A DNA stretch of 64,000 bases. Source: Escherichia phage NHEP11. Where the stretch lies: sequence record PQ511149.1; one strand, written 5' to 3'. Positions 38,942-42,999 of this stretch are shown here, piece by piece. The translations under genes and the position numbers were made by a program. Below the pieces are notes generated by a model. It was not told the origin of the DNA. It saw nothing but the letters and a program-made list of their open reading frames with translations, and made no database searches. Positions within the stretch are counted from its first letter, which is position 1; each line of letters starts with the position of its first letter.

Positions 38942-41900
38942 ATGGCTACTTTAAAACAAATACAATTTAAAAGAAGCAAAACTGCAGGAGCACGTCCTGC
39001 CGCTTCAGTATTAGCCGAAGGTGAATTGGCTATAAACTTAAAAGACCGTTTACTTTTTACTAAAGATGACCAAGGAAATATCATTGATCTTGGTTTTGCT
39101 AAGGGTGGTAGTATTGACGGGAATGTTATTCATACTGGCAATTATAACCAAACTGGCGATTATACTTTAAATGGCACCTTCACTCAAATTGGCGATTTCA
39201 ATCTCAAGGGTATTGCTCGCGTAACTCGTGATATTATTGCTGCGGGTCAGATAATGACCCATGGTGGCGAACTTATTACAAAAAGTTCAGGTACAGCACA
39301 TGTTCGTTTTCATGATTTAGCTGACCGTGAACGTGGAATCATTTTTTCTCCTGCTAATGATGGATTAACTACACAAGTTCTTAATATTAGAGTTCAAGAT
39401 TACAAAGCTGGTTCAGAAAGCACTTTCGCTTTTAATGGAAATGGTTTGTTTTCTTCACCAGAAGTTTTTGGGTGGAAATCTGTATCAACTCCGGTAATTT
39501 ATACCAATAAAGTTATCACCAATAAAAAAGTTAAAGATGATTATGACATCTATTCGATGGCAGACAATGTCCCATTGTCTGAAAGCACTACTGCTATTAA
39601 TCATCTACGTGTCATGCGCAATGCAGTAGGTTCTGGTATTTTCCATGAAGTTAAAGATAATGATGGAATAACTTGGTATAGTGGAGATGGATTAGATGCT
39701 TATCTTTGGTCATTTACCTGGAGCGGCGGAATTAAATCAAGTCACTCAATTTCTATCGGTTTAACACCCGGTAATAAAGATTATTCAATATTAGGACCAT
39801 CTAGCATTGCTTTAGGAGATAATGACACCGGGTTTAAATGGCATCAGGATGGATATTTTTTTACGGTAAACAACGGTACAAAAACTTTCCTTTCTGGTCC
39901 GGCGGAAACCACTAGCCTTAGAAAAATGGTTATGGGTTATTCTGTAAATGGTACCGATTTGACTACTCCTCCAACTGAAAACTATGCTCTTGCTACTGTT
40001 GTGACATATCATGATAATAACGCGTTTGGAGATGGTCAGACTCTTTTAGGATATTATCAAGGCGGTAACTATCATCATTATTTCCGCGGCAAGGGTACCA
40101 CAAACATTAATACTCATGGCGGTTTGTTAGTTACTCCTGGTAATATTGACGTTATTGGTGGTTCGGTTAATATTGATGGTCGTAATAATGCTTCTACATT
40201 GATGTTTAGAGGTAACACAACCGGTAGTAGTTCAGTTGATAATATGACAATTTCTGTATGGGGTAATACGTTTACTAATCCTAGTGTAGGTAATCGTAAA
40301 AATGTCATGGAAATTTCTGACGCAACTAGTTGGATGAGCTATATTCAAAGACTTACTACTGGTGAAGTAGAAATGAACGTTAACGGTTCATTTGAATCAT
40401 CTGGTGTTACTGCTGGAAATAGAGGAGTTCACACAACGGGCGAAATTTCATCTGGAGCAGTGAATGCTCTTCGTATTTGGAACGCAGATTATGGAGCCAT
40501 TTTTAGACGTTCAGAAGGAAGTCTTCATATTATTCCAACTGCTTATGGCGAAGGCAAAGATGGCGATATCGGTCCACTTCGTCCGTTTAGTTTGGCTTTA
40601 GATACAGGTAAGGTGGTTATTCCTGACTTAGATTTATCCCATACCACTTTTGCAGCAAATGGTTTTATTAAATTTGGCGGTCATGGAGCAGGCGCGGGTG
40701 GTTATGATATTCAGTATGTTCAAGCAGCTCCTGTTTTCCAGGAAATTGATGATGATGCTGTAAGCAAATATTATCCTATTGTTAAACAGAAGTTTTTAAA
40801 CGGTAAATCCGTTTGGTCTTTAGGTACAGAAATTGAATCAGGTACATTCGTTATTCATCATCTGAAAGAAGATGGTTCACAAGGCCATACATCAAGATTT
40901 AATATGGATGGTACTGTTAATTTCCCTGATAATGTTCTGGTCGGTGGTGGTGAAGCTGCTATTGCTCGTAATGGTAATATTTTCTCTGATATTTGGAAAG
41001 TATTTACAACTGCAGGTGATGTAACTAATATCCGTGACGCTATTGCTACTCGTGTTTCTAAAGAAGGCGACGCGATGACCGGCACTCTTTGGATTAATAA
41101 AGATGCTGCTGGAATAGTTCTTAATCCTCCTTTGGCCAGTGATTCATCATTTATTCGTTCCGATACGGCCGGGGTCAATAATTGGTATATTGGTAAAGGC
41201 GGTGCCGACAATGGTCTAGGTTTTTACAGTTATGTTACACAAGGCGGTGTATATATAACAAATAACGGAGAAATATCACTTTCTCCTCAAGGCCAAGGAA
41301 CATTTAATTTTAATAGAGACCGCCTTCATATAAACGGTACACAATGGGTTGCGCATAAATCTGGCGCCTGGGGTGACCAATGGGGTTTAGAAGCTCCTAT
41401 ATTTGTAGATTTTGGATCCGTCAGCAATGACTGCTATTATCCTATTATTAAAGGAAAATCTGGTATTACTAACGAAGGATATTTTTCCGGCGTAGATTTT
41501 GGTATGCGACGCATTACTAATAACTGGGCACAAGGTATTATTCGTGTAGGTAACCAGGAAAATGGCCATGACCCACAAGCTATCTATGAATTCCACTCTA
41601 ATGGGACTTTTTATGCTCCGAGCTTACTTAAGAGCAACAGAGTATCGGCTGGCGGTGGTGACCCTGCATGGGGTGGGCCGTGTATTGTACTTGGAGATAA
41701 CGATACCGGTTTGCTTTGGGAAGCAGACGGTATTTTCAACGCGTATGCAAACGGCCAAGGTGTGTTTAGTTTTAGACCTGGTTTAGCTCAGACATTCGGT
41801 GATGTTAACTTCCACTGTAATGCAGGTATGTATGTTCGTGATAACATTGATGTTAACGACGTTTATATTCGTTCTGATATTCGTTGTAAGTCGGAAATTA

Positions 41901-42190
41901 AGCTTATTAAGAACGCTCAAGAGAAATCTAAACTATTGGGCGGTTATACTTATCTGCTTAAAAACTCTGTTACAGACGAAGTTAAACCGTCTGCCGGTTT
42001 AATTGCTCAGGAAGTTCAAAAAGTATTACCTGAACTTGTTTCTGAAGATAAAGAGACAGGCTTACTTCGTTTAAATTATAACGGTATTATCGGTTTAAAT
42101 ACCGCTACTATCAACGAGCATACTGATGAAATCAAGGAATTGAAATCTGAAATTGCTGAGTTGAAAGCATTAATTAAATCATTATTATAA
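38942..42190 (+). CDS. 37: long tail fibre distal subunit gp37 (T2-type, with C-terminal intramolecular chaperone-like domain)
   Basis: 1082 aa; C-terminus ...[18 protein letters not shown]...[15 protein letters not shown]... resembles self-cleaving S74 chaperone domains. Confidence 0.9.
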
Positions 42191-42193
42191 GAA

Positions 42194-42209
42194 AGGGCCT
42201 TCAGGCCCT
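42194..42209 (+). other. GC hairpin (AGGGCC-UUCA-GGCCCU) between genes 37 and 38, overlapping the gene 38 RBS region
   Basis: 6-bp GC stem directly upstream of GGAGG RBS; U-run displaced by 5 nt, so probably not a strong terminator. Confidence 0.35.
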
Positions 42210-42219
42210 GGAGGTTTTT

Positions 42220-42999
42220 ATGGCAGTAGTAGGAATTCCTGGTTGGATTGGAACATCAGCGGTGGCTGAAACAGGTCAACGTTGGATGACAGCGGCCTCT
42301 AGAGAATTACGTCTAGGGAACCCATCTTGGATGTCCCAATTCGCGGGCCGTTCAAGAGAAATAATTCATACACTTGGTGCAGACCATAACTTTAACGGGC
42401 AATGGTTCCGTGACCGTTGCTTTGAAGCTGGCGGCGCTCCTATAGTGTTTAATATCACCGGAAATTTAGTATCATATAGTAAAGATGTTCCATTATTCTT
42501 TATGTATGGCGATACACCAAATGAATATGTTACTTTGAATATTCATGGTGGAGTTCATATGTGGGGACGAGGTGGTAACGGTACTGTAAACGGAAACCCA
42601 GGCACAAATGGCGGCGATGTAATCCAAAATGATATCGGCGGAAGACTTCGTATTTGGAACTATGGCGTTATTGCATCAGGCGGTGGCGGTGGTGGTGCAG
42701 TGTCATTAAAGAATAGCTGGGCGCCAAATGCTACAGCAGGTGGCGGTGGTGGTAGACCATTTGGCATCGGCGGAGGTGGCGTTAATTGGCCGGGTGGTAA
42801 TGCTAGTTATGACGCCCCGGGCGGTGCCGGTTACACTTCCCAATTCGGCGGAGGCAATGGCGGTGATGCTGGCGCTTGGGGCGGAGATGGATGGGGTAAT
42901 CACTTATCTAGATCTGGCGGTGGTGCTCCTGGCAGAGCAGTATTCGGAAGTTCACCGTCATGGGGTGCTACAGGCACAATCTACGGCTCCTGGATTTAA
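42220..42999 (+). CDS. 38: tail fibre adhesin gp38 (T2-type receptor-recognising protein with glycine-rich motifs)
   Basis: 259 aa (T2-type about 260 aa; T4 gp38 is a 183-aa chaperone); poly-Gly blocks [38 protein letters not shown] separating variable segments. Confidence 0.85.

Follow-up and report, generated by a model that had tools for sequence, protein, structure and literature searches.

The probable T2-type long-tail-fibre tip of the RB69-like Escherichia phage NHEP11

The mechanism of the T2-type tail-fibre tip has been established since the 1980s, and its structure since 2018. In this work, we examined a 64-kb stretch of Escherichia phage NHEP11 (PQ511149.1; hereafter the window, with all coordinates counted along the whole stretch), in which gene 37 encodes the precursor of the distal long-tail-fibre subunit and gene 38 lies directly 3' of it. 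The phage is an RB69-like (Mosigvirus) T-even phage, and this region very probably encodes the distal tip of its long tail fibre, which is of the T2 type. Homology, sequence motifs, a predicted fold, conservation and covariation form the basis of this reading. The tip as such is already known, as the same proteins occur at 98-99.6% identity in sequenced, partly characterised phages, and it brings no new biology; what is mildly new is only the covariation documented for an RNA hairpin at the gene 37/38 junction. The use of the analysis lies in annotation and in practical host-range prediction, and two labels can be given with confidence: a gp37 precursor with an S74 chaperone (predicted R977^S978 cleavage, the caret marking the cut) and an OmpF-type gp38 adhesin.

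The tip of phage S16 (PDB 6F45) is likewise made of a distal gp37 fragment with an S74 chaperone and of a monomeric gp38, which consists of an attachment domain, a beta-helix and a polyglycine-II (PGII) sandwich. The S16 chaperone is of the same subtype as that of the window (...RLNYNGI.ALNTAAIN...). In contrast, S16 gp38 is about 46-50% identical to the window protein, carries different loops and binds Salmonella OmpC; the cleavage context reads DLNVS^SD in S16 and DVYIR^SD in the window, and the lengths of the gp37 shafts are unrelated (S16, 749 aa; window, 1082 aa). The closest solved structure is that of PP01 gp38 (PDB 9V85), with 61-63% identity and the same five-loop layout (PMC12892980). 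Its loops differ from those of the window, D and E most, and PP01 binds OmpC of O157.

The classical T2-type comparators used here were T2, T6 and Ox2. They share with the window the gene order, the Pfam families, the Ser/Lys dyad, the DVYIR^SD site and the plan of Gly-rich motifs alternating with variable segments. However, gp38 identity to the window is only 53% for T2 and 67% for T6, the chaperone of all three belongs to another subtype (...LTISNSAVNALLIKAIQE...), and the receptors of T2, T6 and Ox2 (FadL/OmpF, Tsx, OmpA) differ as well. Much nearer are the OmpF-type gp38s of AlbertHofmann, PHB12, NHEP10, RB69, RB51, fPS-2, fPS-90 and FL33, which have the Gly-rich motifs and the same length (259 aa; 257 aa in RB69 and RB51). 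In T4, gene 38 occupies the same slot between gene 37 and gene t, but T4 gp38 (183 aa) is unrelated in sequence and T4 gp37 has no counterpart of the S74 domain. The S74 chaperones of endosialidases and other phage fibres (PF13884) are likewise C-terminal; they have the Ser-x4-Lys dyad where cleavage occurs and continue in a helical segment. Unlike them, the window domain sits on a T-even fibre shaft, and its removal would not complete a tailspike but make the docking site for a separate adhesin, as is known for S16 and the T2-type phages.

The gp37 chaperone domain and the gp38 adhesin

The two genes and their parts are as follows.

38942-42190, plus strand: gene 37, long tail fibre distal subunit precursor, 1082 aa; TAA stop at 42188-42190
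41858-41872, plus strand: codons D973-V-Y-I-R977, with which mature gp37 is predicted to end (gp37 tail alignment)
41873-42187, plus strand: putative intramolecular chaperone of the Peptidase_S74 type, gp37 residues 978-1082, 105 aa (Pfam, 6F45_A, alignment)
41873-41875 and 41888-41890, plus strand: putative catalytic dyad, Ser978 and Lys983 (9-phage gp37 alignment)
42220-42999, plus strand: gene 38, probable T2-type tail-fibre tip adhesin, 259 aa; ATG at 42220
42220-42345, plus strand: predicted gp38 N-terminal attachment domain, residues 1-42 (PF21721; Trp9, Trp22, Trp37)
42565-42942, plus strand: predicted gp38 polyglycine (PGII-sandwich) specificity region, residues 116-241 (entropy, model)

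The original prediction centred on 41800-42999, a range that includes gene 38 in full but gene 37 only in its last ~130 codons; the spacer between the two genes is 29 nt. The Pfam family PF13884 (Peptidase_S74, 'chaperone of endosialidase') matches gp37 residues 978-1033 at 45.1 bits against a cut-off of 22 (E=1.2e-11) and covers positions 1-57 of the 58-position model. A PDB sequence search matches residues 909-1081 to the S16 gp37 chain 6F45_A (E=8e-30). When the gp37 tails of nine phages were aligned (the window, AlbertHofmann, RB69, fPS-2, FL33, T2, T6, Ox2 and S16), S978, D979, R981 and K983 were invariant in all nine. The window reads DVYIR^SDIRCK, that is, a Ser-x4-Lys dyad (S978-D-I-R-C-K983) right after the conserved DVYIR strand; in the endosialidase family, the Ser stands at the scissile bond and the Lys five residues downstream. 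Judged by its sequence, the gp37 C-terminus is a Peptidase_S74 intramolecular-chaperone domain, as had been proposed in the original prediction from C-terminal peptide strings that are exact in the sequence.

Cleavage occurs at DLNVS^SDRRIKK in S16 gp37 and is predicted at DVYIR^SDGRLKI for the fPS phages (PMC7917993). Carried over by the alignment, this position would make mature gp37 residues 1-977 and the released chaperone residues 978-1082, and autocleavage between Arg977 and Ser978 is predicted by analogy with these homologues. For T2 gp37, proteolytic processing is long established according to Drexler et al. 1986, as that work is cited in PMC3157838. The window chaperone belongs to the RB69/S16 subtype and shares 62.9% identity with the RB69 chaperone, but only 32-35% with the T6/Ox2/fPS subtype. 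A T4-type needle tip was considered for gp37 and rejected: T4 gp37 gives a weak match to the shaft repeats (E=3e-4) and none to residues 978-1082.

Two Pfam families cover gp38, namely PF21721 (Gp38_N) at residues 1-42 (74.2 bits, cut-off 25, E=8e-21) and PF05268 (GP38) at residues 47-259, matched over profile positions 1-218 of 218 (277.7 bits, cut-off 25, E=1e-82). The protein also matches PHROG 2056 ('tail fiber protein; host specificity', E=4e-109) and, by sequence, PP01 gp38 (PDB 9v85, E=7e-73) and S16 gp38 (6f45_D, E=1e-48). Structure prediction, suggested earlier as a check, agrees with these matches. An AlphaFold2 monomer model was built from a 64-sequence alignment (predicted local distance difference test, pLDDT, 84.9; predicted template-modelling score, pTM, 0.78), and a Foldseek search with it returned only three significant PDB neighbours, the two PP01 9v85 chains and S16 6f45_D. 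The model superposes on the PP01 chains at root-mean-square deviations of 1.3-2.1 A (the best fit being 1.3 A across 216 columns, at a TM by target of 0.93) and reaches TM values of 0.80/0.84 with S16 gp38. The predicted fold is a beta-helix plus a PGII sandwich.

The composition of gp38 fits the layout claimed for it at the outset, a 259-aa protein with poly-Gly blocks between variable segments. Glycine makes up 24.7% of the protein and 34.7% of residues 116-259, with runs of GGGGGG (154-159), GGGGG (174-178), GGGG (184-187), GGG (210-212) and GGG (233-235). In the attachment domain, W9, W22 and W37 are invariant in an eight-phage gp38 alignment that includes S16 and T2. In PMC7917993, where Dunne et al. 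2018 is cited for this point, gp38 tryptophans are described as docking onto the gp37 tip. Synonymous changes in gene 38 far outnumber non-synonymous ones (39:4 against Bas47, 28:3 against NHEP10 and 20:1 against PHB12), which indicates purifying selection on a working adhesin.

The identity of gp38 as a T2-type adhesin and not the 183-aa T4 assembly chaperone, which had been proposed from its layout, therefore holds against direct comparison. BLASTP gives no meaningful alignment of the window gp38 with T4 gp38 (E=1.7); a full-length alignment of the two had been named in advance as evidence against an adhesin, and a T4-type chaperone identity was rejected on this result. In several GenBank records, the orthologue goes by the label 'distal long tail fiber assembly catalyst/chaperone'. 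This label is a carried-over T4 annotation and a mislabel, and the RB69 record itself remarks that the T2-subfamily gp38 is an unrelated adhesin. As a separate observation, a 303-aa protein (P0080), annotated 'tail fiber domain-containing protein [Escherichia coli]', contains both Peptidase_S74 and GP38 domains; it appears to be a fusion of the gene 37 tail with gene 38 or a gene-calling artefact.

The gene 37/38 junction hairpin

Two elements lie in the spacer.

42194-42209, plus strand: intercistronic RNA hairpin, its stem of 6 bp (AGGGCC/GGCCCT) closed by a UUCA loop (minimum-free-energy fold, covariation)
42210-42214, plus strand: gene 38 Shine-Dalgarno (SD) sequence GGAGG, 5 nt upstream of the ATG

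The hairpin starts 3 nt past the gene 37 stop and stands directly 5' of the SD. Its loop is UUCA in the window and UUCG in most relatives, and a hairpin, mostly with the UUCG loop, is seen in nearly all gp38-type junctions extracted. Covariation was assessed in an alignment of 23 distinct T-even-like phage junctions, with 500 shuffles and slid controls for comparison. The stem is paired in 92.5% of cells, and 4/6 pairs have changed on both sides; the observed score was reached by none of the 500 shuffles, and the slid controls gave 34-75% pairing. The hairpin is kept, with compensatory changes, in Tequatrovirus, Mosigvirus, Gelderlandvirus and more distant T4-like phages. This covariation marks the hairpin as a structural RNA element that is conserved at the 37/38 junction. 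Rfam, searched at the gathering threshold over the whole window, gave 0 matches, so that the hairpin belongs to no RNA family known there, and a search of one collection of papers did not find an original description of the UUCG hairpin.

In T4, a GC-rich hairpin of the UUCG type stands at the same junction. Located between SD and AUG, it shortens their 22-nt spacing to 5 nt (PMC3014915). The gene 38 start of the window is no split initiation region of this kind: the hairpin stands 5' of the SD, and no structure is needed to bring SD and AUG to their spacing of 5 nt. Beside this, T4 (stretch 4610-4652) keeps the junction hairpin despite its unrelated gene 38, and only the position relative to the SD differs. 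The hairpin would then have outlived the replacement of the adhesin gene by the T4 chaperone gene and have been re-used there to bridge SD and AUG.

We favour a role for the window hairpin in stabilising the mRNA or insulating the gene 38 start, not in blocking it. It is conceivable, though we hold it only tentatively, that the hairpin is a functional RNA in its own right, which might for example hinder decay or processing of the mRNA or, as an insulator, set the gp37:gp38 expression ratio; a second, smaller part of the same tentative proposal is that Lys164 of gp38 shifts the receptor or lipopolysaccharide (LPS) preference.

Another explanation, which we consider unlikely, is that the hairpin acts as a Rho-independent terminator or attenuator, so that gene 38 is transcribed less than gene 37. 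Such an element would fit the 3:1 stoichiometry of gp37 to gp38 (S16 structure; PMC12032242), and a consensus scan indeed flags the GC stem followed by GGAGGTTTTT as terminator-like. Also in its favour, a scan of the window for the T4-type late promoter motif, TATAAATA, found none between genes 37 and 38. This absence implies that genes 36, 37 and 38 are co-transcribed and that the hairpin is internal to their transcript. Against a terminator stands that gene 38 has to be expressed from this transcript. The T run, moreover, begins 6 nt past the stem and lacks conservation, reading GGAGGTTTATATG in Bas47 and GGAGAAAATTATG in T6. This offset, non-conserved T tract weakens a terminator role, and a canonical terminator was rejected in spite of the flag. 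In addition, the equivalent T4 hairpin is documented in the translation initiation region of gene 38 (PMC3014915).

Variable loops, the likely receptor and weaker readings

Variability in gp38 was measured as entropy across an alignment of 64 homologues. Five high-entropy segments alternate with invariant Gly motifs, including GRGGNG 116-121, GG 131-132, G154-158, G175-178 with P180 and G182, and G185. The segments, all identified by entropy, are listed below.

42583-42603, plus strand: variable loop A, residues 122-128; the counterpart of PP01 loop-A W119-I124 (PMC12892980)
42700-42738, plus strand: variable loop B, or hypervariable segment (HVS), residues 161-173; contains Lys164
42772-42795, plus strand: variable loop C, residues 185-192
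42826-42855, plus strand: variable loop D, residues 203-212; Gln208 is the equivalent of RB51 Gln206
42880-42921, plus strand: variable loop E, residues 221-234; Ala219/Trp220 stand just before it

These segments correspond to loops A-E of PP01 gp38 (PMC12892980), and the overall plan corresponds to the HVS/GRM scheme of Trojet et al. (PMC3157838). In the gp38 family, the variable loops determine the receptor (PMC3157838, PMC12032242, PMC12892980). The original prediction had gone further and let the loops set the host range. The part about the loops stands, as the variation does sit in them and their receptor role is published; as the full account of host range it does not, since the short tail fibre/LPS step also shapes it (PMC8594841).

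The window gp38 is 99.6% identical to that of PHB12 (a single difference, K164Q), 98.8% to NHEP10 and 98.5% to AlbertHofmann (Bas47); identity is 93% to fPS-2, 92% to FL33 and about 89-90% to RB69 and RB51. AlbertHofmann uses OmpF as its receptor, confirmed by complementation, and also needs waaC and waaG (PMC8594841). OmpF together with the LPS core serves fPS-2 and fPS-90 (PMC7917993), OmpF serves FL31, FL33 and FL34 (PMC12032242), and OmpF, FhuA and the full LPS core serve RB69 and RB51 (PMC3157838). Since its receptor domain is near-identical to those of phages with experimentally demonstrated OmpF dependence, the primary receptor of the window phage is probably OmpF, and an additional dependence on the LPS core may be expected from the same relatives. 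A 2026 preprint reports that Q206L in an RB51-type gp38 switches the receptor from OmpF to OmpW (bioRxiv 10.64898/2026.04.02.716166), and Gln208, the position that discriminates OmpF from OmpW, is kept in the window.

The substitutions in and near the loops allow a different reading, in which the adhesin binds a receptor other than OmpF (e.g. OmpW, OmpC, FadL or Tsx) through Lys164 and Ala219/Trp220. Single loop substitutions in gp38 can indeed switch the receptor (RB51 Q206L; examples in PMC3157838). Lys164 in loop B is the one residue by which the window gp38 departs from all of its close relatives, with Gln in all eight that were aligned, and T2 gp38 has Lys at the aligned position. Ala219 and Trp220 replace the Gly-Arg of RB69, RB51, fPS-2 and FL33. 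Trp220, however, is common to the window, PHB12, NHEP10 and the OmpF user Bas47; the gp38s of the window, PHB12 and NHEP10 are only 1-3 residues apart; and the receptor domain is 98-99.6% identical to those of OmpF users, with Gln208 retained. We thus regard a non-OmpF receptor as distinctly improbable, and OmpF remains the preferred assignment.

A side observation concerns RB68. Its gp38 in GenBank (KM607004, 201-971) does not differ from RB51 gp38 and carries Gln at the Q206L position, unlike the RB68 stock of the 2026 preprint, which is reported to have Leu (Q206L, OmpW specificity). Either the record and the stock are discrepant, or stocks differ.

Two further readings fare worse. The claim that a GC hairpin overlaps the ribosome-binding site (RBS) of gene 38 was right in so far as a hairpin is present in the broad ribosome-binding region; it abuts the SD, and neither pairs with it nor covers it. 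Taken strictly, this claim would mean that the hairpin represses gene 38 translation by occluding the RBS, which we consider very improbable. The stem end does adjoin the SD, and the minimum-free-energy fold contains a second, weaker helix that pairs GGAG and the AUG region with codons 3-7. But the conserved stem includes neither the SD GGAGG nor the AUG, which stand at the ideal 5-nt spacing, and occlusion is weakened because the SD is free and well spaced. The second helix, a candidate for sequestering the SD, was rejected, as it lacks significance (z = -1.06) and RB69 has a different partner sequence. Weakest is the reading of gp38 as only an assembly chaperone of the T4 kind, with the gp37 C-terminus binding the receptor, which has next to no chance of being right: it has on its side the several GenBank labels carried over from T4, and against it the lack of similarity to T4 gp38 (E=1.7), the full-length matches to adhesin families and adhesin crystal structures, a gp37 C-terminus that is a removable S74 chaperone and no T4-type needle domain, and the remark in the RB69 record.

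Nothing observed contradicts our reading of the region as a T2-type tip, but several points limit it, above all for OmpF as receptor. Cleavage, the incorporation and docking of gp38, and the receptor are all carried over from homologues. Lys164 is unique among the close relatives compared, and Ala219/Trp220 are unlike most OmpF users; because single substitutions in the gp38 family can switch the receptor, as RB51 Q206L does, the OmpF assignment is not certain. The gp38 model is of low confidence in its N-terminal 17 residues, as expected for a model made without the gp37 partner, and the fold energy of the 71-nt hairpin region is not exceptional (z = -1.06).

For the T2-type tip, we propose the following course of events. 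Genes 36, 37 and 38 would be transcribed together from a late promoter. The gp37 chain would be made as a 1082-aa precursor, in which the S74-type chaperone (residues 978-1082) may aid trimerisation and folding of the three chains and then cut itself off at Arg977/Ser978 through the Ser978/Lys983 dyad. Cleavage would expose a flat tip of three ...DVYIR strands, the presumed docking tip for gp38, on which one gp38 monomer would dock through residues 1-42 (Trp9, Trp22 and Trp37). The rest of gp38 would form a short beta-helix and a PGII sandwich built from the conserved Gly-rich motifs, from which the five variable loops would project to contact the outer-membrane receptor, most likely OmpF with the LPS core. 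The hairpin directly 5' of the optimally spaced SD would most likely stabilise or insulate the mRNA around the gene 38 start.

Genome context, fibre mosaicism and neighbouring genes

Over 20 kb, the window is 98.3% identical in DNA to Escherichia phage NHEP10 and 97% to the BASEL phage AlbertHofmann (Bas47, Mosigvirus); by this measure it is an RB69-like (Mosigvirus) T-even coliphage. The long-tail-fibre operon is complete on the plus strand, in the gene order 34-35-36-37-38-t. The slot of gene 38, directly 3' of gene 37 and 5' of the holin gene t, is the same in T2, T6, RB69, S16 and Bas47. The remaining features of the operon are given here.

33209, plus strand: candidate T4-type late promoter motif, TATAAATA, upstream of gene 34
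33251-37084, plus strand: gene 34, 1277 aa
37093-38217, plus strand: gene 35, 374 aa
38243-38250, plus strand: candidate late promoter motif of the T4 type, TATAAATA, upstream of gene 36; late transcription of 36-37-38 likely starts here
38277-38933, plus strand: gene 36, 218 aa
43018-43025, plus strand: candidate late promoter motif, TATAAATA, for holin gene t; marks the end of the fibre operon
43033/43045-43704, plus strand: gene t (holin), 223 or 219 aa

In the motif scan, genes 34, 36 and t each have a plus-strand match to TATAAATA 27-42 nt upstream, and in fPS-2 a late promoter is annotated at the same place upstream of gene t. Across the whole window the motif count is not above chance, so the promoter assignments rest on position and on knowledge of T4.

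The fibre is a mosaic. Residues 100-900 of gp37 are 100% identical to NHEP10 gp37, but the tip is only 95-96% identical, and gp38 has diverged more as well. PHB12 has a near-identical gp38, but its gp37 shaft drops to 70-75% identity in places. The gp38 receptor domain (~50-259) hardly differs between OmpF users of Mosigvirus and of Tequatrovirus; the lineage of the fibre, in contrast, is tracked by the gp38 attachment domain and by the gp37 chaperone. It is the kind of modular exchange known from this locus (PMC3157838, PMC7917993).

A few observations touch the neighbouring genes. A tRNA scan of the window found no tRNA genes. The gp35 hinge protein carries a match to Pfam PF15711 (ILEI, interleukin-like EMT inducer / FAM3-type) at residues 58-131 (E=6.6e-7; 30.2 bits, cut-off 27), and a search of gp35 against PDB sequences matched no solved structure. 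For holin t, the mechanically called open reading frame starts at 43033 (223 aa), but the holin annotated in relatives has 219 aa. The first codons contain a GGAGG that stands 4 nt upstream of a second ATG at 43045; given this position and the 219-aa relatives, the true start of holin t is probably 43045.

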